A DNA stretch of 63,738 bases, counting the filler. It is 21 parts of 21 records of this genome, joined end to end, with 100 filler letters (N's around TTAATTAATTAA, not from the genome) between each part and the next. Parts side by side here need not be neighbours in the genome. Positions count along the whole stretch, not along the records: positions 32,775 to 35,217 come from SRR36015646_23867; positions 35,318 to 38,143 come from SRR36015646_23969; 19 more parts are not named here. One strand, written 5' to 3'. Position numbers and translations under genes: made by a program. Shown here piece by piece: positions 3,291-45,143 of the stretch. How positions within the stretch are numbered: position 1 is the first letter of the stretch; each line of letters begins with the position of its first letter. The notes below the pieces were generated by a model. It had not been told where the DNA came from. It did not search any database and worked only from the letters and a program-made list of their open reading frames with translations.

Positions 3291-3298
3291 AAATAAAA

Positions 3299-3466
3299 AT
3301 AAAATATTTTATTCATAAATGTATAATAAAATCCGAAGTGGCAAGGTAGAAGTGGCAAAGTAATGACATCAGAGAATGCAGGTGGACAGAAAACAGAGTC
3401 AATGTGAAAACATAGTGTTTTTATTTTTATAATATAAAAATATAAAGGTGCCTTTATTTGCAATAT
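3299..3466 (-). promoter_or_regulatory. Conserved non-coding block array downstream of ORF-A (copy 1)
   Basis: Four blocks are identical to 35384-35539 and in the same order: ATAAAATATTTTATTCATAAAT (3299-3320), GTGGCAAGGTAGAAGT (3338-3353), TAATGACATCAGAGAATGCA (3361-3380), TTTATTTGCAATAT (3453-3466). Function unknown. Confidence 0.75.
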
Positions 3467-4043
3467 AAGAGTGCCCAGGCAAGGTCATTACTTAATAAAA
3501 TAAATTATGTTTTTATTAGAGCTGACCCGATTCGGATGAGCTGCCAGAATTTCAGTAGTAGTCAAAAAGGGGGGTGTTCAACATGGTTTTTTATGGAGCG
3601 TGCTGTATATTGGTATAATAAAAGCTTGTTAACGGTGTCTATGGAATTTGCATACATAGATTTTTGTAGAATTTATTTTTTCGTTTTCTGACCCTTCTGT
3701 AGAGAAGAAGGGTTATAAAAAGTTTTGGTGCAAACAGTTGGCGTGGATGTTGCACCGGAAGTTAGCTCGTCTGGTTATTATGATAGTACTTTGTTAAGTA
3801 TGTAGCTCATTAGTTGGTTTGTTAACGGTGTCTAAGAAATTTGCATACAGGGTTGGTTTTTGGTGTTTATTTTTGTAAAAGTATATAAGGATTGTGGCAG
3901 CTGGAGTTCCCAGTGAGAGGTAAAGAGACAGAAGAATAAAACTTTATATATAATGTTTGTTTTATTTACAACTTTTATAAATATACTTTATATTGATGAT
4001 TTTTAAGAGTAGTGTAAGGGGACGTATGCCAGGGCACTCTTAT
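3465..4043. repeat. Segment of about 580 bp bounded by 17-bp imperfect inverted repeats
   Basis: ATAAGAGTGCCCAGGCA (3465-3481) vs TGCCAGGGCACTCTTAT (4027-4043), 16/17 complementary. Internal direct repeat TTGTTAACGGTGTCTA...AATTTGCATACA at about 3626 and 3819. Confidence 0.6.
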
Positions 4044-4063
4044 TTTTTTGAATAATTTATTTT

Positions 4064-5380
4064 TTATCTATTGACAAATTTATTTTTTGTCTCACTACCT
4101 ATCCATCCAAAGCGGTTAAAATTGTTGTAAGGGTTAAAAGGTCTGCGATATGTTGCCATTCTAGTAGAAATTCTCTCATATTTCTCAGAGTCTGAGATAT
4201 CTAGAAAGTTGATTTTGAGGGTATCCAATTTTGAGTTAATTATTGCAATTTCTTGTCTGCAATGTTCAATGATTGATAAAAAGTCAGCTTTGTGCTGTTT
4301 TTGTTTTTCTTCCCTGAGTCTGTTAATGTAGTTTTGAAAACTGCTGGTTTTTGGAATGTTCAATGCCATTTTTGGCATTGTAAATTGAAAACCATTATTG
4401 CTAAGCATTTCAGCTTGTTTGATATGTTTTTCAAACAGTATTTTTTTGCTTTTTAGACCAGTCATATGTCTGAGGTGGTTACTGTTGGAACAGTGTTCTG
4501 AGTTTCTAGTGTTTTGAAAATTTCTAGTGTTTTGAAAATTTCTAATGTTTCCAAAATCAGTGTTTCGGAAATCTCTAGTATTTTGGGAATTTCTAGTTTT
4601 TGGAACATTTTCCGTTATTTGAAAATTTTCCGTTTTTTGAAAGTTTTCTGTTTTTTGAAAACTAGCTGTTTGTTTTGGAGGTTGAATTAACCTTTCCTTT
4701 GTTGAGTCGGGTATGTTGAATCCCTTTTTGAGAATGGAATTTATAGTTTTCTTGGGGACAGTGTCTCCAATAGAACTGTTGTTTTCTGATGTTATAAGCA
4801 GGCTTTTTGTAGAGGAGCTATCTTTTTGACAGCTGGATTCCAGGGTGGAATCTTTTTGTTCTAGTTTGTGTAAATATTTAGCTAGTTTTTGAACTGCAAG
4901 GACGGCTGTGGACACTGTATGGAGAGTGTTGGTTTGGCCGTTTTTGAAAGTTAAAATTCTATTGGTCATTTTGTTGACCTTGTTATGATCTCGTATTGTT
5001 TTAGATGGTAAGAAGTTTTTTATGTTAGACTGGTTTATTGAAATGGTGTCAGGTTTGACTTTATGTGATGACTCAGGGTTTTGTTGAATGATAGTTTCTG
5101 GAGATATGAGAGAGGTGTGATTTGCCGGAGTGGCCTCACTTTTTGATGTAGGCTTCATAGTGGGAGAGCAATGTTCTTTTGTTTTTAATGGAGAAGATTT
5201 GATTTTCTCATTTGAGATGTTCTTTTTGGTCAGCTGTAACTGATTAGGTTTTAGTTTAGACTTTCTGGCTGGAGTGGTAGAAACTATGTGGGAAATGTTG
5301 TCAGAAGGTGATTTTATTATGGCTGACTCAGTACTGGTAGAGACTAAGTTAGAAGGTGATTTTATTATGGCTGACTCAGT
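4064..5380 (-). CDS. Unknown protein ORF-A, copy 1 (5'-truncated; S/T/K/N-rich N-terminal part, conserved helical C-terminal domain)
   Basis: Track ORF 4064-5158; I read the frame as open to the contig end at 5380. The C-terminal ~110 aa align with ORF 36390-37829. Contains FQxTxN hexapeptide repeats and a 48-bp repeat. Confidence 0.75.
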   Translation of the reverse strand, partial: TESAIIKSPSNLVSTSTESAIIKSPSDNISHIVSTTPARKSKLKPNQLQLTKKNISNEKIKSSPLKTKEHCSPTMKPTSKSEATPANHTSLISPETIIQQNPESSHKVKPDTISINQSNIKNFLPSKTIRDHNKVNKMTNRILTFKNGQTNTLHTVSTAVLAVQKLAKYLHKLEQKDSTLESSCQKDSSSTKSLLITSENNSSIGDTVPKKTINSILKKGFNIPDSTKERLIQPPKQTASFQKTENFQKTENFQITENVPKTRNSQNTRDFRNTDFGNIRNFQNTRNFQNTRNSEHCSNSNHLRHMTGLKSKKILFEKHIKQAEMLSNNGFQFTMPKMALNIPKTSSFQNYINRLREEKQKQHKADFLSIIEHCRQEIAIINSKLDTLKINFLDISDSEKYERISTRMATYRRPFNPYNNFNRFGWIGSETKNKFVNR

Positions 5381-7847: not shown

Positions 7848-9869
7848 CTTCCTACTTCTCTCTATTAATTCAGTCAGTACAAACATGTTATCCATTCCAT
7901 TCCTTCCTTTCCTAAAACCATTCTGCATTTCTCCTAATAAGCCCTCTCTCTCAATTATTACATTCATTCTAATTTGGAAAACTTTCATAAACACTTTATA
8001 CAGATTGCTTCCTACTGCTATACCTCTATAGTTGTCTAGTATATCATCCATACCTCCTTTGTGTAGTAAAGTTAATGTTGCTTTCTTCCATACTTCCGGT
8101 ACATTCTCACTTTCTTTTATTCTATTTAACAACTGAGCTATACATGCAAATAACCTTTCTCCCCCATTCATTATTGCCTCATTTGGAATTCCGTCTTCAC
8201 CAACTGCTTTTTTGCGTTTTAATTTCTTACACACACTTTTTATTTCTGTTATGCTTATCTCTCTCATCAGCTCCTCATTCCACTTCCCTTCCACCCTTTC
8301 ATCCTTTTTACATTTCCCCCAGTTAAGTTTTCCATTTAGATTATTCCAATAGTCCTTTAATACTTTCTCTACCCCTTTTTCATCCTCTATATCTACCCCC
8401 TCAATTTCACACAAATTACTCTCCGGTTTACCCTTCCGGAGTATTTGCCACAGTTTCTCACTACTTGCACCTCCAGATTTTTGAATTTCCTCCATTATTT
8501 TTTGGTTTTGATTCCGTTGTATTTCCCATTTCTCCTCAAATACCTCTTTTTTAAGTTCCTGGTACCTCTTATACTCAGCCTCTGTGTTTCCTCTTTGTTT
8601 ACATTTACTTTTAAACTTACGGTTTGCTTCTTTTCTCTTTTTTATTAGCCCTACTAATTTCTTGTTCTCTACCCTTTTCTTTTTTTTCTTTCTCACAGTC
8701 ATTTTCACCGCTGATTGAACCAGAATATTTCTCATTCTCCCGCATAGCTCGTTCATACTTATTTCTCCTTCTTTCTCTTCCTTTATCCACTTTTCCCATT
8801 CCTTCAAATTTTCTTCTATCCCTCTTTCATACTCCTTCCACTCTGCATTTTTCCGAAATTTCCACTTCTGTTTATGTTCTTTTAGTTTTACTCTCTTTGT
8901 TTTTAATTTAAAATCTCCTACAATCCAATTATGCAGTGTTGCAGTGTCCCACCAACCATCCTCATCTATTCTCATTTTCTCGAGCCTATACTTCATACCA
9001 TTTGTAGCTATCCACCCATCAATTGCGGATCTTATATTCCCTACCTGGTATGTCCAATCACCTACACATTTTTTGTCTGTATTCAGAACTTTCAACCCCA
9101 GCTCATTTACAAAATCCACTAGCATTCTTCCATTGTCATTTATACGCACTTCTCTCAATCTTTCTCTGTTCTCCCATGCCACGTGCCCATTGAAGTCGCC
9201 CATCAGTAGAATTTCCAAGCCTTCCATCCGGAACCTTTCAATTTTCTCCGTTAACTTTGCATACACCTCCTCATTCCATGTGTTCTCAATGCCTGTTTGT
9301 GCCATGTACACTACACCCACTGCAACTTTCACCTCGTTACTAATTATTTTCACCCATACCATTTCACCCTCTGTCCACTCTTCGCTACCCTCCTCTATTT
9401 CTACTTTTTTCATTTTTACTCCTTTCCTCACCCATACTGCTACTCCTCCCCCTTTTCGTAGCCCTTCCTTTCTTTTAATGTGCACCCAAGTTCCCTCCCC
9501 CCAACATTTGACACACTGATCATTGTAAATTTTTCCCACTTCTGTTAATCCAATTATATCCATGTTGTACTCATTTATTATTTTCCCTATTTCATCCGCT
9601 TTATTTTTTAGCCCTCCAACATTTACATATCCTATTCTAACACTATCTGCTTTCACTCCCTTTCTCCATTCTTCTTCTTTATCCCCCCTCTCTTCACTAT
9701 TTCCTGTTTGTATATCTCCTTTTTGCTCTACTTCATCCGTTTTCACTTTCTTATTTCTTTTCCCCCCCCTTTTTCTTTTATGTTTTATTCCATTCTTCTT
9801 GCTTTCCTTCTCTTGTTCCCTGTTAGGCCTATCTCTTTCTCTCTTTACATTCTCCCTCTCCCTAAAAAA
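7848..9869 (-). mobile_element. Non-LTR retrotransposon ORF2 (APE endonuclease + RT, 3'-truncated); clade not resolved
   Basis: APE motifs GYVNVGGL, GLTE, MGDFNGH, SAID; RT start KAVGEDGIPNE, NYRGIAV, QNGFRKGR. I read the frame as open from 9884 through the GTG at 9746 used by the track. Confidence 0.9.
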
Positions 9870-9988
9870 TGCATCCTCACCCTTTCAGTCACTTCTCTTG
9901 CTCCGTGTTGACTCATGTGTACCCATCCATCCCTTTCACCCCTGTACATCTCTTCCCTCATTCTCAGTTGCTCTTCTCCATTCACCTC
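9845..9988 (-). CDS. C-terminal fragment of LINE ORF1, probably an SGNH/GDSL esterase domain
   Basis: Manual translation EVNGEEQLRMREEMYRGERDGWVHMSQHGAREVTERVRMHFLGRGRM* resembles the SGNH block V of LINE ORF1 esterases (Y..DGxH(L/M)S..G). Ends just after T_TTT_TTA. Confidence 0.6.
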   Translation of the reverse strand, partial: EVNGEEQLRMREEMYRGERDGWVHMSQHGAREVTERVRMHFLGRGRM

Positions 9989-23529: not shown

Positions 23530-24045
23530 TTCGACAGAGGGGGTCAAATTTTCAAAAAATTTCAAAAAATGAATTTTTTTCAATATTTAACAGATTTAAG
23601 TTGGCCAATGAAATAATCACTTTGATGAATATCATTGGCTTCCAAGCAATTTTTCTATACTTTTGGGGATGAATATACACGGTAACCATTTTCTTTGCTC
23701 TAACCATTTAGGAAGGGGTTCGACAGACGGGGTAAAATTTTCAAAAAGTGATTTTTTTTCAATATTTAGCAGATTTACGTAGGCCAATAAAACAACCACT
23801 TTGATGAACATCAGTGGCTTTCATGCATTTTTGATACTTAACTGAGTTGATGAATATACATTGTAATAGTTTTCTTTGTTCTAGTCCTTTACTACGGGGT
23901 TAGACAGCGGGGGTCAAGTTTTAAAAAAATGCGTTTTTTGTGTGCAAATTTAACAAAATTACGTAAATATATAAAACAAGCCCATTGATGAGTATCATTG
24001 GATTCCATGCACGTCTTGATACTTTAGGGTATGAATATGCATTAC
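23530..24045. repeat. Three degenerate tandem units of about 185 bp, probably subterminal repeats of the adjacent DNA transposon
   Basis: Units start TT(C/A)GACAG..GGGGT(C/A)AA at 23530, 23719 and 23900, each with TTGATGA...ATCA.TGG.TT and GATGAATAT-like segments. Confidence 0.85.
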
Positions 24046-24254: not shown

Positions 24255-26424
24255 TTATTCAGATTGTGTATTGAAGTCTTTTCTACTCTCAAATACGGGC
24301 ATCTGCTTTCTGGCAGCAATTCTTGCCCTAATGAAGCCATCTCTGTTCACGTGACCAAAAACAGACTGTGCGGCCTCAGTCACAAGTTTTACACAGCGTT
24401 CCACAGACTGAGTGTGGCAAGGGAAGTCTCTGATGAATTTAATGTCATCAGCAGCAGATTCATCAGCTCTCACAAAGGTATCAAACAACTTCTCAGTTTT
24501 AACATGGGCAATAATAGGGGGGTCAAATTTTGTGTCATCTTCTGTCCAGTCAATCATTTCCATGTAGCTAGCTGCGCTAAAGTTCAGTATTGGCACTTGA
24601 AACATTCTCCGTTCAGCACTCTGCCTGGCATTTATAACCCGACGGCAAGCAAGTTCTCGGATGTGAGGTCGACAGTCAAATAGCATTGCCAGAATAATGT
24701 TTTCACCGTGAGCAAAGTAGGCATTCCTACTAATTGTTTTCTCAACAATTGCCAGATGCTCCGGTGACAGGAACCTACAAGAAACAATCATATCATAAAG
24801 GTGAACGGCTGCAAGTGTAACACTCTGGTGTTGCTTAACATTAAACCACATAGGTCCATATACTTTTACAATGTATTCAGTTAACAGCTGCAGTTCATTG
24901 GATGGTTGCTCAGACGCAACATACAGTCTGCATATCCTGTTGGCAGTAGTGAGCCAGCGTGAATGTGACATTTTCCCTGGTGACCTATTTTCTAATCCAG
25001 TAGGTACTTTTCCATCCATGATTGCATTACAGATTCTTAGCAAATACTCCTGGTCTGAACTAAGGTCATCACACTTGAACACAGGGAAATTAGGAGACTC
25101 TACTTTACGAAATTCAACTACTGGTAGAAGACAGTTTGCTAACTGTTTGCCAATTGGTCCATTGAAAGAGCACGGTCCTTCAGTAGTGCCATCAAGTTTA
25201 TGTAGAAGATGGCGAAGCGGCAGTTCATTAAAATGCAGAAGGCATATAAACCATTGCAAATTTCGTCCCAAGTAGCGTTCCATTTCGGCTATCACTCCAC
25301 CCTTTTTGCCAGTGTTGGTAACAGTGCCATCACAACCCATAGCAATAAGTTCTCTAAGCGAATTTTCGCTTGCAAGATACTCAATAATGCATTTAGAAAT
25401 CTCTTTCGCTGTGCCATTCTCAGGTGCCAAGTGATTGAGATAATCACCATCTGGCTGCGAAATAAGACTCATATGTTCTTCTTTTACAATATGCTTGGAG
25501 GGTCCTGTGACTAAGGTATCATCTTTTCTGCCATCAAAATATAAACCACGTACCGTAGTGCTTTTAATACATCTAAGGCCTGTTCTCATCTTTTTCCGTT
25601 CTCGTGCAACTTTACATTTGTCAATGATATCTGGAAATTCAATGTCGTGCATTGTGGCTGAGACAAGTGCTGCTGCACCACGATTTGAAATCCCATATCT
25701 GTCTGCTTGTAGAGCCACGGAAGGAAGCATTATTTTAAGTTTATTTGCACTTTGACTCGGGCCCGCATAAACATCAGATTGTTCATCTAACTCAGCATCC
25801 GTACCTGAATCTGTCACATCAGCGGCCACAATATTTTCGGGATTATGTGTTTCAAAGCTGGTTTCCTTTCGTTGGTCTTCTATCAACTTTCGTGACTCCA
25901 AATTAATTTTCCGTTTTTCTCTGTCAGCATATTTTTGCGTCATCACCCTGTCTACATTTGCAATAAACATTGTGCGGGATGTGCGTTGATCATCCAGAAA
26001 CACTTTCTCTGCACCTGGCACATTTTCATCACAGGCAATATCAAAAAGTAAAACACTCTTCTCTTGGTACCGGTCTAGTTTTGCCAAAAATCCTGCCGTG
26101 GTTCTTCGCTTCTGAGGCATACTATAGATCTCCGTAAAACATTTTTCATAGTGGCATTTAATTTTGTGACTTATGTTATTTTTGTCAATCATCGGAACTG
26201 AACCTTGTAGCCATATGTCGGACAGCTTGTCAGAAACAGCATTACATACATCGCGAATGTTCGGATTAAGTTTTGTATTGCTGCCAGTTTTAAGTTGTTC
26301 GCGAGTTATATCGTAACATAGCATTACATCACCATAGGTTGGCAATTGGGTCCGAGGGAGCTCTGACGGTTGCCCATATAATGTCTGCAGTTTCTTTACG
26401 AGTTATCTTCTTTTTAGCACTCAT
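24255..26424 (-). mobile_element. hAT-superfamily-like (hATm-type) DDE transposase, with an apparent 1-nt frameshift near the start
   Basis: LYFDGRKD, KEEH, GCDGTVTNTG, WFICLLHFNELPLRHL, HSRWLTTANR, PCHTQSVERCVKLVTE. The ATG at 26424 (MSAKKKITRKETAD) is 79 nt upstream of, and out of frame with, the track ORF starting at 26345. Subfamily call is from memory. Confidence 0.7.
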
Positions 26425-32010: not shown

Positions 32011-32819
32011 AATACTGGGGTCCGGGGCCGGGTTTATATCAAGTTTGTTACAACCGTTTAGGCCTAGTTGTTAACCAGTGTTAACAATGTGACAATTTAG
32101 GCATATGATTGTCAAACAAATGTAATTATGCAATTCAAAACTACACTACATGTATATAGGCAAAGGCCTACTTGGCTACAATCTGCAAATTGCACTACCT
32201 AGAGCATGTAGAGTGTGAATACTAACCAGTGATAGCCTAGCCTAGTGACCTATTCAAACCTACTACTAGCATGACTATCAACATGTCAAATAAACAGCGG
32301 CACATAGCCAACAACAGCCTAATCGTGACAAAGAAAATTGGCACTGTGCTCCAAATAATATAGCAGATAGCTTACGACGACAACTTAGCTAAGCATATAT
32401 TAAAGCAGGGCAATGTAATTTGAGTGACAACTATGCAGTGGACATCGGTGGGCAAAATTTATACTACAAACAGACAATTACGACAAGTTCAACCTAGCAT
32501 AGTTTAAATTTACCTGAGAGCCTATTATCCACTCAAAATTATCACTTACACAAGTACAAATTACAAACCCTGAAGGCTTTACCTGTTCACGCTGTTACTC
32601 AATTTAACAAAAAATGCACAGATGCACAACACAGTTGAACCACTATAGGCTACTAGTTCCTGTCCATATCAACANNNNNNNNNNNNNNNNNNNNNNNNNN
32701 NNNNNNNNNNNNNNNNNNTTAATTAATTAANNNNNNNNNNNNNNNNNNNNNNNNNNNNNNNNNNNNNNNNNNNNTGTACATATTAGTGATTGCTATTACG
32801 CCACATATTTAGTTAAAAG

Positions 32820-34433
32820 ATGGATACAGCACGTGTGTTTGCTTATTTGTTCCATTTGGAACGTCATCCACACGCAAGAATTCTGAAGTTCCCATATGCG
32901 AACACACGATTTCTCGCATTCAGTGATCCTGCGATCTCAAAGAAATACGGAAATACCATTCAGTCATACATCGTGCCAATTGAGCGGGCATTATTTATAC
33001 CGGCTGGCACGGTCCCATCGAAGCAGCTGTTGGAAATGCTGCCACAATTCGGTATAGCGCCAGTCCGCTATACCAAGGAGCAGGCGCACCTCGCGTGCCT
33101 CCTCCTGAAGGACTTCCCCGAAGCCTTTACCGATTTCGCCATACGAGCACCTGAGGTGGCGAAACTCTATCGACTAATGTTGAATTTCAGCTCGTTGTTC
33201 GCCACCTTGTTACAAGAGGTAGCGTTGGGGCGGGGATGTCTAAGATCCCGCCAGGCGAGACACGAACTAACCGCACCGATAGAGGAGGAGCGCCTAGCCG
33301 AAGTGTTCAACGGCTCGGCACTATTGCTACAACTGGAAGGGGGGCAATTAATAACCCCTAACATCGAATACGCAGACTCCGATGCAGTTAGGCAAGCGAC
33401 AGACGAGTCCTACCAAGACGAATCGTTAGTAGGGGTCGAACCCCTACTCCCGATGTTAACCGAGGCGGAGGTGGCAAGTTATGTGAATACGCTAGGAACC
33501 GAGGATGCAGAGGAAGAGATGCCAGGCCAAAACCTGGCCTATACGGAGAACAAACCATACCGAATGCGGGTATGTAAACCGCCGCATTACGCTGCGTTCG
33601 CATGGACAGGCAGCCACTCTAATCCGCCCTCACCGGAACTAATCATTAGTGGACGAGGAGAGATGGTATGCGTGCATTGTGGCGAACAATGCCAATGCAC
33701 CGTATGCCATTTCGTACCGCAGCCGCCGAGTCCGTATGACCAGTACACGGCGCTCGCGAGCAAACTGTACGAAGGTAACCACGAGCAAAATCAGTGGGCA
33801 CCGTCGTCGCCACGAGACACACCGCCCACAGGTACACCAGACTTTACACCGCCATACGAGGGATCTCCCGGAACGACGCCACCACAAGTAGATTCGCCCT
33901 CAGCCAGCGAAGAACCGTCGTCACCACCCTATGCTCCGTCGTCGTCAGACGATGAAATCGAGGTCGACGAGGAAGTGGCAGCACTGACGGCCGGTTTGTT
34001 AAGTGGCCTGCACCCCGAACCATCGTCAACATCGAACGTGACAAATGAGAAACCGTGTACACTAAGATGCGGGTTCTGCAAGACTACGTTCGTGAGAGAC
34101 AAAGGGCATTGCCTATGCAGACGGATACTGGGACTGACTGGGAATACGACAAAAGTAGCCGAATCGCCAGCCAGCCCAGAAGGTGTCGAGCAGGACGGCC
34201 TCACGACGGAGGAAGAAAGCTCAATCGAATCAGAAACGGATACTCAAGATGAGATGGAGGAGCCGAGTGATTCAATAAATAAAAAGCTAAAAGAACTTGC
34301 CGAGCTCGCAGAGCGTCAGGAAAGACTTATTAATGATACTAAACGCGAAGACGAAGCGTTCGCTGAACGTCGAAACAGACTAGCCGGACTAACCGCCCGA
34401 CGGGATTCCGATGATGAAGCCGGATGGGAATGA
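32820..34433 (+). CDS. Orphan 537-aa protein with two Cys clusters, Pro/Ser and acidic tracts, and a C-terminal coiled-coil-like segment
   Basis: Long intact ORF, richer in GC and CpG than its flanks. CVHCGEQCQCTVCH and CTLRCGFC...HCLC. No family recognised. Confidence 0.7.
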   Translation: MDTARVFAYLFHLERHPHARILKFPYANTRFLAFSDPAISKKYGNTIQSYIVPIERALFIPAGTVPSKQLLEMLPQFGIAPVRYTKEQAHLACLLLKDFPEAFTDFAIRAPEVAKLYRLMLNFSSLFATLLQEVALGRGCLRSRQARHELTAPIEEERLAEVFNGSALLLQLEGGQLITPNIEYADSDAVRQATDESYQDESLVGVEPLLPMLTEAEVASYVNTLGTEDAEEEMPGQNLAYTENKPYRMRVCKPPHYAAFAWTGSHSNPPSPELIISGRGEMVCVHCGEQCQCTVCHFVPQPPSPYDQYTALASKLYEGNHEQNQWAPSSPRDTPPTGTPDFTPPYEGSPGTTPPQVDSPSASEEPSSPPYAPSSSDDEIEVDEEVAALTAGLLSGLHPEPSSTSNVTNEKPCTLRCGFCKTTFVRDKGHCLCRRILGLTGNTTKVAESPASPEGVEQDGLTTEEESSIESETDTQDEMEEPSDSINKKLKELAELAERQERLINDTKREDEAFAERRNRLAGLTARRDSDDEAGWE

Positions 34434-35383
34434 TAGTTTGGAACACTCCAGCGATCGTTATTACGTTGGTGATTCATTAAGTTGGATAAGATACTTTGTT
34501 TAACTATCACATCGCTCGTTTTGTCCAGATGTTCGCTCGCGATTTCGCTGAATGACTTTCTCCACAGTAACTCTTTATAGGAGCAGATCTATTTCTGCCC
34601 TCTGTTTAGTCTGTTTAGCAGTACTGTCCATACTTCCAATGGTTAATGTCTAATATTGGGACAAGGTCTTACGAGTTGACAGTAAATTGATATGGAATTC
34701 TGTTTTTCCGTCAAAAAATATCAATGTGTAAGTGTATAACTGGAATATGACATATTAATAATACTATATGTATATTGCATTGAGATAATTAGGAAGAAAT
34801 ATTACAACATATGTTTACTGATTATAAGGTTTTAATGATAGAAATATATATATATATATTTAATTGGGAAATTATATTAAAGATAACTTGAAGTTTAATA
34901 CTGTTAGTACAGTGTAGGGATCTACACTAAATTCTGGTATGTGCTACGGTAAATAACACGAAAAAGATTTTCGGAAAGTTAAAGAAATTTTATTAAGAGA
35001 GTTTTCGCATATTTGCGATTGAACGATATGGAAGCTAGTACTTCCAAATAGCTCTATAAGACGAATGTCTTACTAGTCTCGTCTTATATATATGCTTGTA
35101 GTTTTGATTAAATTCGGGAAATAATTGGTAATTGTGTACCACAAGCATATTATTAGTTTTGAATATAGGAATATTTTGCATTTGAAGGCCATCTAATAAT
35201 GACCTTCAAATTTATAANNNNNNNNNNNNNNNNNNNNNNNNNNNNNNNNNNNNNNNNNNNNTTAATTAATTAANNNNNNNNNNNNNNNNNNNNNNNNNNN
35301 NNNNNNNNNNNNNNNNNATGTTTTTAAGGTGTAAATTTGTAAATATGAAAATAAAGTATTTTATTCATAGATTTGTAAATCTG

Positions 35384-35539
35384 ATAAAATATTTTATTCA
35401 TAAATAATACAACAAATATATAGTGTGGCAAGGTAGAAGTATAAAAAAGAATTATAATAATAAAAATAATAATAATGACATCAGAGAATGCAAATAAACA
35501 GAAAGCAGAATTAGTATATAAATATTTTATTTGCAATAT
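35384..35539 (-). promoter_or_regulatory. Conserved non-coding block array (copy 2)
   Basis: Same four blocks as 3299-3466, at 35384-35405, 35425-35440, 35473-35492 and 35526-35539. Confidence 0.75.
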
Positions 35540-35575
35540 TTTTGTCATAGATATATGTTTATATACAATTTATTT

Positions 35576-36166
35576 CTATATGTTATTTTTTATGATGTTA
35601 GTTAGCGTTTTGGCGCCTTCTTTGCTTAAGTGAATGTTATCAGTCGAGTAGAGAGGCCAGTAGGTGTAGCCACCAGCTATGAAAAACAAAGAAGTTTTAA
35701 TCCAAGTAACATTGAGTTTTAAAGACATGAATGATGAGTTATAGCTGGCTATTCTGCGGTTGATGGGTGAAGCCATCAGGCGTCCTCTTGGTAATAGTTG
35801 TATGACGAATATTTCAGCATTGATGAATGTGCCATGCAGCTGCATGATCATGGAGTTGAACTTTATAGTGGCTAACTTCGTCGGATCTCGATTATTGGCA
35901 CCAGCTAGGATCACCAGTTGAGAAATGTTGCTGGCGATCTGGCGGATTTCAGTGTAGTCTTCAGCAAATTCTGCTAAGTTGTCTAACAGGCCTCCATGTA
36001 GGCTGGCGATTGCAGTAGTCTCAGCATTGAAGCCAAACTGAGTTATTTCTTGATTTGAAAACAAACTTGAACCCAGTAACAGAGTCTGGGTGCTCTCAGT
36101 TATATTCTTGATGGTAACTTTGAATGGAGCATCTCTGATCTGTGATTTGAACGATTTTGAATACAT
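35576..36166 (-). CDS. Stand-alone SGNH/GDSL-family hydrolase (196 aa)
   Basis: Block I LLLGSSL, block III VILAGANN, LLPR, block V DNIHLSKEG. Confidence 0.85.
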   Translation of the reverse strand: MYSKSFKSQIRDAPFKVTIKNITESTQTLLLGSSLFSNQEITQFGFNAETTAIASLHGGLLDNLAEFAEDYTEIRQIASNISQLVILAGANNRDPTKLATIKFNSMIMQLHGTFINAEIFVIQLLPRGRLMASPINRRIASYNSSFMSLKLNVTWIKTSLFFIAGGYTYWPLYSTDNIHLSKEGAKTLTNIIKNNI

Positions 36167-36303
36167 GATGGTAATGATGAGTAGAATCGAATTGTGGATC
36201 TTTATATACTGATGGAAAAGTTGGCCAGTCTCTTTTTTGTAAGTGATAGCATGGCGTTTTTTATGCAGGTAGCTGACGGCGCGCCCACTGGCTACTCAGC
36301 TAC
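36167..36303 (-). promoter_or_regulatory. Putative TATA promoter and 8-bp stem-loop upstream of the SGNH gene
   Basis: TATATAAA (minus strand, 36208-36201) lies about 35 nt before the ATG, with an Inr-like TCATT between. Inverted repeat GTAGCTGA (36269-36276) / TCAGCTAC (36296-36303). Confidence 0.45.
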
Positions 36304-36389
36304 TGACATGTACCTACATGTGCTTTATTATAAGTTTGAATGTTTTGATTAGTTTCTGGCAGTTTTTGACAAATTTAATGGTGACAATA

Positions 36390-37829
36390 TTATCTCCAAT
36401 TTCGCGCAATTTTGTTGAGAATATGTTGAGAACGCTTTTTGGCAATGTGGTCAGACACTCTGCAGTATTTAACACTGTCAGAAGTGTCATGTGATTCTGC
36501 AATTAAGTTTTGTAGCTCTAGATTTAGTCTTGTAGCCTCAGTCTCGCAAAATGATTTCACAATTGTCATGTCTTCCTTATAATGACGTATCTTTAAGGCT
36601 CTAAATTCGCTGATAAATGTATCAAATTTTGATGTTTTTGGTATGCTCAAAGAAATCTTTGGCATGAAGAAACTTTTTCCATTTTGGAGGAAAAGATTAG
36701 CGTTGGAAGCACAATTTGACAGTTGAATTTTTTTCTGTTTTAATTTTGTAATGTCTAGCAAAAGTTTCGAATTAGAGCACAAATCTTCAGGTCTAATTTT
36801 GTTATTATTATTTGAATTTGTTTTGTTAGTTCTTAGAGACGCCATTTTGTGGCCGTTTTTTCTGTTGATGTTTTGATCAAAAATGTCTCTGTTTAGATTT
36901 TTTGATGTTAGAAATGTTTTTCTTGTTTCAGTTTTTGGAGGAGATAGTGATATAGATTCAGGACTTGCCTGAAAATGTTGATAGCTAGTGATTACCGGGG
37001 ATAAAGGTATATTATGAGAAGGTGATGGCACTTCAGGTGGTGTCATGTTTTCATTTTCAGTGTTTGAAATTTGATCAGCTGTCGTATCAAGACTAGAGCT
37101 GTTTAAGTCTATCCCTAGTTTTTTGATAATGGCATTAACTGGGCCCATTATTTCGGCTACTAAAAGTAGAGCCTGGGCATTATGTGTTTCAAGTTCTACA
37201 ATATTGTCATTGACAGCATCTATTTCTGCACTGTCATAGAGATCTGAATTTGAGGCTGATTTTTCTCTGATGAAATCAGAGGTTATGAACTCTGCTGTTT
37301 CTGAGAGTTGGTTGTAATGGTTTGTTAATCTAGTAGACCTTTCAATGGATTTGGCTAAAACTTCGAATGGGTCGACAGACTCATTTTGTGAGTCAGTGGA
37401 CTTTTTGAATGAGACTTTTTTTGTTGTTGAGGCTGGTTTTTTTGCTTTTCTGGAATTTGGAGATAATTTGTTTGGTGTTGAGGAAAGTTGAGAGGAAAAA
37501 TGAGAGCTCATCTGGTTGCTGCGCCTTCTGCTGTCTTTGCGTTGTGGTAATTGAACTAAGTTAGGAAAATCTTCAGTGCTTGAAATGTCAGGCGAACTGT
37601 CGGTGTCTTTACTGACCCGAATTTTGTCTAATCTGGATAGTTCTAGACTGTCTTTTGTGAGATAGTTCAGTGAGCGATTAGCAACTTTCTCTTTTTTGTG
37701 AGAGTTGACTGATTTGAAGATGGTGAAACCATCTTCTTCTGTTTGTATTGAGTCTGGAATCAAAGTTGAAATAGCACCTGGGCTCGCTTTTGGCGAGGTA
37801 GCCTGGGCATATGTTTTCTGAGAAGACAT
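36390..37829 (-). CDS. Unknown protein ORF-A, copy 2 (479 aa, apparently complete)
   Basis: CSNSKLLLDITKLKQKKI...NGKSFFMPKISLSIPKTSKF...DTSDSVKYCRVS aligns with CSNSNHLRHMTGLKSKKI...NGFQFTMPKMALNIPKTSSF...DISDSEKYERIS of ORF 4064-5380. Confidence 0.8.
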   Translation of the reverse strand: MSSQKTYAQATSPKASPGAISTLIPDSIQTEEDGFTIFKSVNSHKKEKVANRSLNYLTKDSLELSRLDKIRVSKDTDSSPDISSTEDFPNLVQLPQRKDSRRRSNQMSSHFSSQLSSTPNKLSPNSRKAKKPASTTKKVSFKKSTDSQNESVDPFEVLAKSIERSTRLTNHYNQLSETAEFITSDFIREKSASNSDLYDSAEIDAVNDNIVELETHNAQALLLVAEIMGPVNAIIKKLGIDLNSSSLDTTADQISNTENENMTPPEVPSPSHNIPLSPVITSYQHFQASPESISLSPPKTETRKTFLTSKNLNRDIFDQNINRKNGHKMASLRTNKTNSNNNNKIRPEDLCSNSKLLLDITKLKQKKIQLSNCASNANLFLQNGKSFFMPKISLSIPKTSKFDTFISEFRALKIRHYKEDMTIVKSFCETEATRLNLELQNLIAESHDTSDSVKYCRVSDHIAKKRSQHILNKIARNWR

Positions 37830-38243
37830 TTTTCAGAAGTTTTTAAACACAGTACCTGATATGAGCTTTTTTTGAATGTTTTTTTTGAAATTTAATTTAG
37901 TTTTGAACACAAATGATTTTGAATGGAGAGATAAAATGCAAGATTTTGGAGTCAAACAATATATATATAACAAATATGTTTTAAGTATACAAATGAGATA
38001 ATTTTTGAGATAAATGTGAGTAAAAATAAATAATAATAAATCAAAGTTTATTCCTTACCGGTACGACTTTTGAGTCTTCAAGCGGAAATATGATTTATTT
38101 GTAGAAAAACTTGGGTTTAAATACTGTTTTGGAAAAGTGACTGNNNNNNNNNNNNNNNNNNNNNNNNNNNNNNNNNNNNNNNNNNNNTTAATTAATTAAN
38201 NNNNNNNNNNNNNNNNNNNNNNNNNNNNNNNNNNNNNNNNNNN

Positions 38244-38469: not shown

Positions 38470-38932
38470 ACACAACACGTAGACATGGTCATGACATGCA
38501 ATTCTTGTCAACCTACCTTGATAGTCGAGTTGGATCCACCTGGTAACACAGTACGCCTATTGTTGCAATAAATTGGTTCGGTGTGCATGATATCGACGTG
38601 TTTTGACATTTTAGGCCATTTTTGGGAAATTTGCAAAAACTCATGAAGAAACGAGTGACCTTGAAAATACACTTGGTGAAAAACTGGCACGTAGTACACA
38701 CATATAGCGCCTAACTTGTATCACTCGGATACAGATGACCAAGCTGTTTTGCATACGCAACCGCACAGTACATGCAATCGTTCCACTGATATAGACTGCA
38801 AGTCGTGATCTATAGTATGCAAATACGTGTCGTTCAATTGACAACTTGATCTGGAACTGTCAGCTGGAAATGACGTGTAGTCAGAATTAAATCCAGGTGG
38901 GCCTATCGAAATACGTAAACTTTTGCCTTGAA

Positions 38933-39838
38933 ATGGAAGCCTCACTATCAACCAAGAGGCCTCTAAGTGAGGAAAGTGCGATGGCCGGGGCAGCAGATGG
39001 CAAACTTCAGAAAACGGATATGCCAAACGAATCCGATTCTGACCCTGAATCTGTTTTTGTGGAAGCAGGGACCGAAGGAGGCATCAGTGACTCGGAGCTT
39101 ATTTTGGCCGTTACTGAAGCACTCAAACGACCGGAAGTGCTCTCTACGCTCGCTCCACTGATTGCTGACTGCCTAAGAAAGACCATTCGTCTGGAATGTG
39201 CGAAGGCAGCCGAAAAGTCGCTGAACAATGTAAAGCAAAAATATGACGTGCAGCTGAAACGCAAGGATGAGGAAATAAACTCCCTCACGGCTCGCCTCAA
39301 CAAGGTAGAGGAGGACGTGGACGCTCTGGAGCAGTACGGCAGGCGATGGAGTGTACGTTGGTGGAACTGCCCCGAATCGGCAAATGAAAACACCGACGAT
39401 ATCGTACTGAAGGCGTGCCGTGAAAAGCTGGATCTGGACCTGAGCCTATCTGACATCCAGAGAAGCCACAGGGTAGGCAGACCTCCGGAAGGTCCCAAAG
39501 CACGTCCAAGGGCCATCATCTGCAGGTTCTCATCCTACCGGACTCGAGCTATGGTTTTGGGCGCCAAGAGAAAGCTACACGACGAGCCAAACCGGGAACG
39601 CACACGAAACCCTCCGGTGTCCATCTCAGAGGACCTGACAAAGCGACGAGCAGCCATACTAACCAAGGCACGGGAGGAGTTGAAACTGGAAAAAATCCAG
39701 TCTGCCTGGTCCCGGGATGGCAGATTATTCATTCGTGATAACACTGGCAAACGTCTCTTAATAAAACGTATGGACGATCTCCTTGCAGCCATAGGTCAGC
39801 GCCCGACGGCCGACGATACCACTGTGTCCACTGCCTAG
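38933..39838 (+). CDS. LINE ORF1p (coiled coil + RRM + CTD; L1 transposase-22-like, as in CR1/L2-group elements)
   Basis: LEQYGRR.SVR...PES..ENTD, DIQRSHRVG, RAIICRFSSYRTR, ISEDLTKRR, AWSRDGRLFIR. First ATG at 38933. Confidence 0.88.
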   Translation: MEASLSTKRPLSEESAMAGAADGKLQKTDMPNESDSDPESVFVEAGTEGGISDSELILAVTEALKRPEVLSTLAPLIADCLRKTIRLECAKAAEKSLNNVKQKYDVQLKRKDEEINSLTARLNKVEEDVDALEQYGRRWSVRWWNCPESANENTDDIVLKACREKLDLDLSLSDIQRSHRVGRPPEGPKARPRAIICRFSSYRTRAMVLGAKRKLHDEPNRERTRNPPVSISEDLTKRRAAILTKAREELKLEKIQSAWSRDGRLFIRDNTGKRLLIKRMDDLLAAIGQRPTADDTTVSTA

Positions 39839-42772: not shown

Positions 42773-45143
42773 TTGCAACTTCATGAGCTGGTTTTGTGGC
42801 AGAGGTGCATTGATCCATAATTTCCGGTTCTAACGAAATAATCGGCATAATTTCCGCTACTTGGTCGGTAAAAACTTGTTGATACTCCAGCATCTCTGCA
42901 TCATAGCAGTCGCAATTTGCCGAACAAAAGCATGACAGGTCTCTGTACTTCAGAGTGCCAGATTCTGCTGCTAGTATCTGGTGTACATTCATGACACGTT
43001 TTATGCTTGGCAGTGGCCGGTTTAGCTTAGCCGTACACTCAGTGATCTTATTGACATCCAATGGGTTTATGTTGAATATTTCCAGATTCAAGGAGGCAGA
43101 TAAAGAAACCAAATCCTGTGCGCAGGTTATGTCGTGTCCGGTTGCAACCAATCGGTCTGCTTTGCTTTTGAGTGTCGCTCCGATTCCGTCAGCGGGACCT
43201 TTTCCATGTCCCGCCTCCAAAAAGTTCCAGGATGCCGCTTTAAAGCCGTAGCGAAAAGTAAGGACTGCCAGTAGCAGAAAGTTTAGCCTATTTCTATACT
43301 GGGTAACCGGCCCATCGCTCACAAAGTGGATGACAACAACATCATGAGCCCGTATATCCTTTAAGACCGGCTCCAAGTGTGCCCAAATAGCGCAGGGGTT
43401 GTGCAACATGCTGTCACTAACTGTGGCATAGCATTTAACTTCATTGTTGGCGAATGTCGCATGTGCTGTGTGGATGCTCATTTGGTTGCGGCTGGCTCCA
43501 TAGTGCATCGCTTGAATTTCTTGGCTATACTTTGCTCCATAATTTTCGCTAAAGTCAACCTGTAATACGACACTATCTGATTTTAAGTTTAGCTTCAGCT
43601 TTTTGATGGCGTCAAATTGATGGTATATGCGGTACTCGTGTGCTAATACGTTTCTGAAGTCGGCTTCGAAAAGCTTGCACAAATCCGCGACACTCAGGCT
43701 TTTACTGTCTTTCTTTGCTATTGTGACAACAATGTTCTTGTTTGTTTTTATGCTTGTTCTGTTCTCTTTCACAGTGACCCATTCGTTTACTTGAATTTGG
43801 GCATTGGACATCTTATCTACAACTTGTTGATTAATCAGTGTAACAGTAGGCTCGTCACACTGGCTGCATTCTTGATACATGCATTCTTTGTTTTTGATGT
43901 TGCAGACAGCCATCTTTTGCAACTGGTGCAAATCCTTGTGTGCCAGAACCTTTTCTGAATGGAGCTTGTCCACCTTGAATTGTAGGTTAGCATGTTTCTT
44001 ACACATGACAGTTTCCCGTTTATCACAAGATGGCGGCACAACCCAGAATGGCCGTAGACGAGCAAACATGGCATAGCTGATATGTATCCCGTCATTCTCT
44101 GACTTAAACCAACCATACAGGTTAACCATTGTGTTTGTAAGATATCTCTTTTGCTTTTTGACCTTTCCTCTAGTGATGGTATCATTCTTCGAGGCCGATG
44201 GTGATGAAACCATATCATCATTGTAGAAGTCCACAGCTTGCTGCTTCATGAATGTAAAGTCATCCTTTTTCCTAAAACGCTCGTACTCCAGAAATTCCAC
44301 TGGGTCAATCCGTGTTCTCAGTCTGACTTGCTGTGCTGTGATACTTTCCTCATGCATGACTCTGTATTTCTTTAATATCTTTCCTGACGTTGCTTTTCTG
44401 AAAGCCTGCTTCTCTCTTTGTGTTTTAAGAGTGTGCTTGTTTTGCTTGAGTTGGGATGCTATAGCAAATGCGTACGTCAGCTTCTTCTTTAATGTCTGCG
44501 TTGTACCATGCTTCAGTAGTTTAGCAGCACTAGATGATGGTGTTGTAGGGCTAGACATTCCCATGTGACTGCGTTCGGTGTTGCTGGAACCCGTTTTGGA
44601 GGTTGATGATCGCTGTTTGCTCCTTTGTAGTGTTTTGATCTTTCGTTTGGATTCGTTCAGTTCCTCCAATAACTTTGCATTCTCATCCTGTAACGTGATG
44701 ATTTTTCTGCTTGCACGTCTGTCCTGCCTCTTCACTAGTTTTCGGCCAACAGTTTTCTGCTTGGTGCTAGTGCTATGTACATTAACTCTGTTTTCTTCAA
44801 TGCTCTGCTCTTCGGTATGTACAGTGTCATGTTCTTCATTGTTGTCAGAGTCAACATTATGAGCCGTGTCACTCTCGGTGGATGCAGCTGATGCTTCAGC
44901 AGCTTTTTTCTGTCTTCGCTGGTTTGCTTACTTTGTGCGCCTTTTTCTACGTAGGTTTCTTTGTTCACATGGGGTCTTGTCTTTGGTACTCTTTACAACT
45001 CCTCTTTTCTTCTTGTCTTTATTTCTGGCCCTTTCACTCTTCTTGTACACATCATGTTTCTGTGGATTGCTGCGGATTTTCTGACGATATGCCCGCATGT
45101 ATTCTGCTAATTTCTTCTTTTTCTCTTACTTTGTGCCAGGCAT
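42773..45143 (-). mobile_element. Sola2-like DDD transposase, 3'-truncated, with two in-frame TAA codons in the N-terminal part
   Basis: QVDFSENY...EIQAMHY, FVSDGPVTQYRN, WNFLEAGHGKGPADGIGATLK, RDLSCFC. The frame continues upstream of track ORF start 44735 to an ATG at 45143, with TAA at 44930-44928 and 45128-45126. Confidence 0.75.

Follow-up and report, generated by a model that had tools for sequence, protein, structure and literature searches.

Here, we analysed a window of 63,738 nucleotides (nt), which consists of 21 contigs of 2.0-6.0 kb each joined through N44-TTAATTAATTAA-N44 spacers, and focused on two of them, contig 12 (positions 35318-38143) and contig 2 (3291-5381), which encode, with the genes of both on the minus strand, homologous orphan proteins followed by a shared non-coding tail. 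Tentatively, and with rather less than even confidence, we propose that the two contigs represent old, diverged members of one lineage-specific family related to retrotransposons, with a coiled-coil and esterase module that is similar to the esterase-type proteins encoded by the first open reading frame of some retrotransposons (ORF1p) but is split into two open reading frames (ORFs). Whatever the classification of this unit, the sequence features of the two contigs are real and non-random.

The shared protein, denoted ORF-A in contig 12 and ORF-A' in contig 2, is conserved at the C-terminus, where a gapless BLASTP alignment spans 132 amino acids (aa), 49 of which are identical (37%; E 6e-20); the N-terminal parts do not align. 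This result bears out the first-pass annotation, which was made from the sequence alone and described two contigs with divergent but homologous ORFs, and the conserved motif string quoted there is present in the alignment. When both proteins were compared with all 21 contigs using tblastn, matches were obtained in contigs 12 and 2 only. The AlphaFold2 (AF2) model of the conserved domain of ORF-A (mean predicted local distance difference test score, pLDDT, of 73.5) contains helices at positions 21-52, 69-116 and 121-147, of which the first two are predicted to form an antiparallel hairpin around the invariant loop NG..F.MPK..L.IPKTS. Fold searches with this domain returned only generic antiparallel coiled coils and helical hairpins, with the best E of 0.55 against the PDB in Foldseek, the best E of 0.24 and nothing at E<=0.001 against BFVD, and the best Z of 9.7 by VIA-align, under the bar of ~13 for helical models. 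The complete ORF-A protein has a net charge of +13, is rich in S, T, P, N and Q, is largely of low complexity and contains no hydrophobic or membrane segment; the net charge of ORF-A' is +33.

ORF-A belongs to no Pfam (E<=1) or NCBIfam family, neither ORF-A nor ORF-A' matched a PHROG, and none of 1.84 billion representative proteins matched ORF-A, so that the search for a known family, a match to which the first-pass annotation had listed among the results that would refute its reading, came back empty. The C-terminal region of ORF-A likewise yielded nothing in a word-indexed homologue search, the domain nothing in a search of the ESM Atlas, and the alignment of the two domains no relatives among metagenome, viral or genome contigs. 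The two ORFs have stayed intact even though their composition is A-rich and prone to stops: values for the sense strand are 37-40% A and 11-13% G, and for the ORF-A ORFs 39-42% A and 12-14% G, compared with fractions of 0.25-0.43 for A and 0.19-0.30 for G among the retroelement ORFs of the window, which places the A-rich, G-poor ORF-A sense strand at or beyond the extreme of these retroelement ORFs. ORF-A' additionally carries in-frame tandem repeats, namely, an 18-nt unit present nine times at 4503-4661 and a 48-nt unit present twice at 5300-5380; the latter coincides with the break of contig 2 and probably caused it.

Downstream of the coding sequences, near the 3' ends of both contigs, lie four blocks whose order and strand agree between the two (Table 1). 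The first-pass annotation had pointed out four identical blocks of 14-22 nt, and these are indeed exact in both contigs and far beyond what shuffled sequences produce. Contigs 12 and 2 have 20 14-mers in common; 200 shuffles gave 0.16 on average and never more than 3. The 20-, 16- and 22-nt blocks, the three that were searched, were found nowhere else in the window, and the 20-nt block had no match in metagenome or viral contigs. In the alignment of the tails, which covers 127 columns, identity runs of 22, 20 and 16 nt are split by diverged, indel-rich spacers, and the 58 columns that fall in identity runs of at least 14 were reached in none of 20000 shuffles. In contig 12, block 4, which contains AATAAA, occurs as a tandem duplication (33-nt unit, 35335-35402).

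The significance of these blocks becomes apparent against the age of the pair. Across the ORF-A domain alignment, nucleotide identity is 47.7%, and third codon positions are identical in 32.6% of cases compared with 29.5% by chance; by the NG86 method, nonsynonymous divergence (dN) is 0.69 and synonymous divergence (dS) is not computable. Near-chance identity at third positions, together with the lack of a computable dS, indicates that the ORF-A lineages are old and that synonymous sites are saturated, so that neutral DNA should retain no similarity. Thus, given this old coding divergence and identity runs beyond those in shuffles, the tail blocks are discrete constrained motifs rather than leftover similarity. 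A recent wholesale exchange of the tail was considered as well and rejected, because it would yield even identity, whereas the observed identity is confined to discrete runs.

Between the ORF and the blocks, the first-pass annotation had placed an SGNH hydrolase gene in contig 12 and a segment bounded by inverted repeats in contig 2, and had interpreted the two as alternative occupants of an exchangeable cargo slot. Both are present as described, the former as an ORF with a sub-threshold Pfam match and the latter with a length of 585 bp; the cargo slot itself, however, is not supported: in contig 2, terminal inverted repeats (TIRs) delimit the segment, a nested insertion whose flanks are colinear with the 3' region of contig 12. 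Specifically, block 1 abuts the downstream (3') edge of the insertion, its upstream (5') side adjoins sequence colinear with contig 12, and the junctions, read by eye, allow a 2-bp TA or AT duplication. Considering the inverted arms, the junctions and the colinear flanks on both sides, we regard the segment as a nested insertion that resembles a miniature inverted-repeat transposable element (MITE) and not as cargo; it is short and non-coding and has TIRs and a candidate target-site duplication (read by eye), as MITEs do. There is no second copy of it in the window. Internally, the insertion contains a 56-nt direct repeat (3626-3681 and 3819-3874; 75%).

Once the insertion is set apart, the actual difference between the contigs comes into view. 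The word TAAATTTGTCAA, exact in both contigs, lies shortly after the ORF-A stop and is colinear with block 1 and with ATAAAAAATAA, which is also exact in both contigs and falls within the final esterase codons of contig 12 but extends across the ORF-A' stop of contig 2. The distance from TAAATTTGTCAA to ATAAAAAATAA is 15 nt in contig 2 versus 784 nt in contig 12, so that the contigs would differ by an indel of ~770 nt, with the spacer and almost all of the esterase ORF inside it. Both short colinear words (11 and 12 nt) are rich in A, and among the 14 words of at least 11 nt, 5 represent off-diagonal noise; the esterase indel and its colinearity are, accordingly, best taken as suggestive. Given that homology to the 3' region of contig 12 resumes at the stop of whichever ORF is last, the tail seems to belong to the unit as a whole rather than to one gene.

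The stand-alone esterase ORF of contig 12 matches the Pfam family Lipase_GDSL_2 along almost the full length of the profile (E 2.4e-5), but its 25.3 bits fall short of the gathering score, 32.9. Candidate catalytic residues, picked by eye, are S33/S34, G58/G59, N91/N92, D176 and H179, within the motifs GSS, HGG, GANN and DNIH; block III of the esterase aligns to PAF-AH Ib beta with E 0.84. The nearest ESM Atlas clusters consist of eukaryotic SGNH proteins of ~200 aa (score 0.93). Homologue searches among near-length and longer candidates were blank, as were searches of viral contigs; PHROGs gave a single weak, unannotated match (phrog_36700, E 0.034) and NCBIfam none, and PDB sequence searches found nothing meaningful, including no similarity to 4c1a/4c1b at E<=10. 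The single-sequence AF2 model of the esterase (pLDDT 38) was too poor for a fold search. As the first-pass annotation had pointed out for Terminons, an SGNH esterase beside a coiled-coil ORF is a known accessory pair of retroelements (PMC3905857, PMC5408684, PMC9210276).

In contig 12, the ORF-A stop at 36390 and the esterase ATG at 36166 are in different frames, with stop codons between them, and the spacer word TATATAAAG is located 42 nt before the esterase ATG. On the sense strand of contig 12, all 7 AATAAA and all 10 TATA-like words lie outside the ORFs (0/7 and 0/10 inside); ORF-A' of contig 2 does contain AATAAA words. The 314-nt leader might, judging from its sequence, act as a promoter. 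Several ways of connecting or rearranging these segments were rejected after inspection by eye: a 203-nt intron in the 5' untranslated region (UTR) (38058-37856) would have a good donor, but its acceptor region is A-rich instead of pyrimidine-rich; a splice joining ORF-A to the esterase has no usable donor ahead of the stop codon; and read-through of the ORF-A stop would encounter a second stop 4 codons on. As RNA, the spacer folds no better than shuffles (z 0.32). It includes, at 36269-36303 on the minus strand, a local GC-rich hairpin with an 8-bp stem around GGCGCGCC in AT-rich surroundings.

The setting of both contigs is rich in transposable elements (TEs). In a scan at E<=1e-5, a Pfam family was found for 17 of the 23 long ORFs in the window, and 16 of these 17 matches are TE-typical, that is, BEL/Pao, Copia, piggyBac, Helitron PIF1, P/THAP, and the domains for APE and for reverse transcriptase (RT) of long interspersed nuclear elements (LINEs). 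By Pfam domains, recognisable TE fragments are present in 14 of the 19 contigs besides contigs 12 and 2, consistent with the earlier statement that most other contigs are TEs. Because many contigs break within ORFs, contig ends are assembly breaks and not necessarily element ends, and no two contigs of the window, LINE contigs included, share a suffix-prefix overlap of at least 12 nt (up to 80 nt tested). Contigs 12 and 2 both stop within ~25 nt of one homologous tail position, as expected at a repeat boundary.

We favour the esterase-type ORF1 module because it accommodates a basic orphan coiled-coil protein, an optional esterase, an A-rich and G-poor sense strand, a constrained 3' terminus and a tail breakpoint common to the two contigs, which are found among TE contigs. 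The unit would then consist of ORF-A, basic, of low complexity and ending in a coiled-coil hairpin, followed by an optional stand-alone SGNH esterase ORF and a non-coding tail (~190-260 nt) that holds four invariant blocks as well as a poly(A) signal. ORF-A would multimerise via the hairpin and coat the element RNA with its basic region, the esterase might target lipids or membranes, as has been demonstrated for zebrafish ZfL2-1, and the tail blocks could provide the cis signal for the RT in target-primed reverse transcription. Given that neither contig contains an RT, such units would either be ORF2-less and non-autonomous, moved in trans like HAL1 of L1, or have their RT beyond the contig end. 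Contig 2 would represent a derivative without the ~770-nt esterase cassette that was later hit by the MITE-like insertion.

Comparison with known systems shows where this proposal fits and where it departs from precedent. Type IV ORF1 has been described (PMC4120745), and the type IV ORF1ps of CR1, L2 and RTEX elements (for example, ZfL2-1; PDB 4c1a, 4c1b; PMC3905857) are similar to the module discussed here in combining a coiled coil with an SGNH esterase of ~175 aa, in containing no RNA-recognition motif (RRM) or zinc knuckle, and in the A-rich sense strand; the basic low-complexity sequence, a likely RNA binder, is another point of similarity. Esterase ORF1ps are characterised in the same source as a coiled coil, a poorly conserved linker and an esterase, without RNA-binding folds, and are reported from chordate, cnidarian and sponge elements that belong to the CR1, RTEX and Penelope clades (PMC3905857). 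Unlike in type IV ORF1p, the predicted coiled coil of ORF-A is a C-terminal intramolecular hairpin preceded by ~330 low-complexity residues. HAL1, which codes for ORF1p only (PMC5753468), resembles our unit in having an ORF1-like gene and a 3' end but no RT, so that RT would be needed in trans; it derives from L1 and shares L1 sequence, whereas our unit has no known parent LINE and an ORF1 of a different type. The common 3' tails of LINEs and short interspersed nuclear elements (SINEs), which reflect stringent recognition (PMC5786205), offer a parallel for a diverged pair that keeps a nearly identical 3' terminal segment; unlike in those tails, conservation here is concentrated in four discrete blocks, with no supported stem-loop.

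Several observations weigh against the retrotransposon-related assignment. The Pfam scan of contigs 12 and 2 (2.8 and 2.1 kb) revealed no RT, endonuclease, integrase, transposase or recombinase, in line with the first-pass annotation, which saw no transposase, RT or integrase. The tails of stringent LINEs are usually stem-loops, in contrast to the tail described here, the RNA of which folds no better than shuffles and displays no conserved structure; the blocks thus resemble signals of linear sequence. The contig ends contain neither a poly(A) run nor a microsatellite, and the 3' UTR is retained in none of the 6 LINE contigs of the window, which leaves the tail without a LINE 3' end for comparison. 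As for the esterase, the Pfam SGNH match is sub-threshold, and its block III (GANN), compared by eye and without an alignment, is closer to host PAF-AH (GTNN) than to the transposon-specific His position described in PMC3905857. In type IV ORF1p, furthermore, coiled coil and esterase share one ORF upstream of ORF2, whereas here each has an ORF of its own, the two being separated by 223 nt and differing in frame; the AATAAA-containing tail comes next, and the 258 nt between the esterase and the end of contig 12 contain no ORF2. Finally, the order of signals in the spacer, AATAAA and then a TATA box, is as for two separate RNA polymerase II (Pol II) genes and hence gene-like or DNA-virus-like, and atypical of LINEs.

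The same spacer, together with the confinement of TATA-like and AATAAA words of contig 12 to sequence outside the ORFs, would be at home in an ordinary, non-mobile, lineage-specific host gene family, in which each ORF-A paralogue would come with a promoter and a poly(A) site of its own, an esterase gene would lie beside one of them, and the blocks would be 3'-UTR sites for RNA-binding proteins or small RNAs, plus a poly(A) signal. Such a family would also explain why both ORFs are intact after long divergence and why contigs 12 and 2 contain no TE hallmark, and a block length of 14-22 nt suits protein or small-RNA sites. We nonetheless deem this explanation unlikely, considering that neither the search of 1.84 billion representative proteins nor any other turned up a homologue of ORF-A, that the loci are found on 2-3 kb contigs among TE fragments, both broken at one tail position, and that the sense strand is as A-rich and G-poor as, or more so than, the extreme of the retroelement ORFs in the window. 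In addition, the 3' region of ORF-A' is colinear with the region that follows the esterase and not with the one that follows ORF-A, which in a host gene family calls for a contrived deletion. Alternatively, contigs 12 and 2 might be the 3' accessory-gene end of a larger retroelement, with the RT upstream and off the contig, as in bdelloid long terminal repeat (LTR) elements, tyrosine recombinase (YR) elements of the Ngaro group or Athena/Terminon Penelope-like elements (PLEs), in which case the tail would mark the beginning of a terminal repeat or lead up to one. GDSL is ORF3 of bdelloid LTR elements and also part of Terminons (PMC5408684, PMC6431247), the SGNH ORF is the last ORF of Ngaro elements, after the recombinase (PMC9210276), and an esterase as the last ORF before the terminal repeat is a feature of bdelloid LTR, Ngaro and Athena/Terminon elements (PMC5408684, PMC9210276, PMC6431247). 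Here, too, a stand-alone esterase is the last gene before the 3' tail, with a coiled-coil ORF nearby, and terminal repeats are where contigs of such elements typically break.

This accessory-gene scenario is, all the same, quite unlikely, given that the 314 nt upstream of ORF-A are non-coding rather than the end of a pol gene, that ORF-A contains neither a recombinase or other family nor a membrane segment, and that no polypurine tract is discernible by eye. Unlike bdelloid LTR elements, Terminons and Ngaro, the two contigs contain no RT, LTR, split direct repeats, hammerhead or telomeric repeats; the ends of contig 12 are not connected by LTR-like, long direct or terminal inverted repeats. 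For an LTR element, contig 12 may be too short to reveal LTRs or an upstream pol gene. In Ngaro, a tyrosine recombinase ORF precedes the SGNH ORF, whereas ORF-A has no Pfam family at E<=1 and its contig no long direct repeats. The earlier suggestion of a Terminon or PLE link found no support either: no PLE RT is present in the 2.8 and 2.1 kb of the two contigs, there is no overlap with any RT contig of the window, Rfam gave 0 matches of any family at the gathering threshold across the whole window and no hammerhead at E<=5 in contigs 12 and 2 (the Rfam matches at E<=5 were weak and unrelated only), and telomere-like arrays were detected neither by Tandem Repeats Finder (TRF) nor on direct reading of the contig ends. 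The likeness of the MPK..L.IP segment to the N-terminal region of Penelope ORFs, put forward in the first-pass annotation, gained support from none of the searches. Because the RT, the hammerhead and the telomeric repeats, three defining features, were looked for and not found, a Terminon accounts for only a small part of the likelihood that we assign to the accessory-gene scenario. Compact spacing, with a poly(A) signal and then a TATA box between the ORFs, and the presence of a Helitron helicase contig in the window could also point to a fragment of a DNA-based element or an endogenous DNA virus (Polinton-like, Helitron-borne or other) with compact, separately transcribed genes. This we regard as very improbable, because hallmark genes and termini of viruses or DNA transposons are missing, with no TIRs and, by eye, no Helitron-like ends, no relatives in IMG/VR when either protein or the 20-nt block served as query, and nothing at E<=0.001 in the BFVD fold search.

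A more far-reaching version of our proposal would be that contigs 12 and 2 represent an RT-less mobile unit of an undescribed kind, with at least 2 lineages and persisting to synonymous saturation, that encodes its own ORF1-like coat protein and an optional, separately expressed esterase and hijacks the RT of a retrotransposon via four linear blocks rather than a stem-loop; this we consider distinctly improbable. Should the unit proposed here prove mobile, HAL1 would have an invertebrate-style counterpart based on an esterase-type ORF1, in which the coiled-coil and esterase parts can function as genes in their own right and one lineage can do without the esterase. It would then bear on the open question of the function of retrotransposon esterases, and the four tail blocks would offer a compact, testable candidate signal for recognition by an RT. 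Conversely, if the two loci belong to a host gene family, they would amount to a lineage-specific orphan with a conserved 3' UTR.

Table 1. Positions of the features of contigs 12 and 2, counted along the window
Feature	Position	Strand	Remarks
ORF-A	36390-37829	-	contig 12, 479 aa
ORF-A'	4064-5380	-	contig 2, 438 codons, open at the 5' end of the contig (5381)
Conserved C-terminal domain, ORF-A	36393-36836	-	residues 332-479; from alignment and AF2 model
Conserved C-terminal domain, ORF-A'	4067-4510	-	from alignment with ORF-A
Contig 12 3' tail	35318-35575	-	258 nt, non-coding, four blocks
Contig 2 3' tail	3291-3461	-	four matching blocks; contig ends 8 nt past the last block
Block 1, 14 nt, ATATTGCAAATAAA	35526-35539 and 3453-3466	-	exact in both contigs
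Block 2, 20 nt, TGCATTCTCTGATGTCATTA	35473-35492 and 3361-3380	-	exact in both contigs
Block 3, 16 nt, ACTTCTACCTTGCCAC	35425-35440 and 3338-3353	-	exact in both contigs
Block 4, 22 nt, ATTTATGAATAAAATATTTTAT	35384-35405 and 3299-3320	-	exact in both contigs
Stand-alone SGNH/GDSL esterase ORF	35576-36166	-	contig 12, 196 aa
ORF-A/esterase spacer	36167-36389	-	223 nt; AATAAA at 36324-36329, then TATATAAAG at 36200-36208
AT-rich leader, non-coding	37830-38143	-	314 nt upstream of ORF-A; TATTTAAA at 38116-38123; no ORF
MITE-like nested insertion	3462-4046	.	contig 2, 585 bp, 20-nt terminal inverted arms, 90% complementary

Elsewhere in the window, contig 4 carries a LINE ORF2 fragment (7848-9884, minus strand) with APE and the start of the RT, the sense strand of which contains 43% A, 30% G and 7.5% C; this C-depleted fragment codes for a protein rich in K, E, G and R. 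On contig 13, a 315-aa ORF with a coiled-coil region (38891-39835, plus strand) has a weak match to Baculo_FP_2nd (E 0.0034, below threshold), and it looks, to judge by its motif, like an L1/Tx1-type ORF1. Three long intact ORFs on separate contigs, of 715 aa (24258-26402, minus strand), 538 aa (32817-34430, plus strand) and 718 aa (42774-44927, minus strand), have no Pfam family at E<=0.1 and may be further unclassified TE proteins. The first of these is adjoined, on contig 9, by a 179-bp tandem repeat at 23555-24043, with 2.7 copies and 76% matches.

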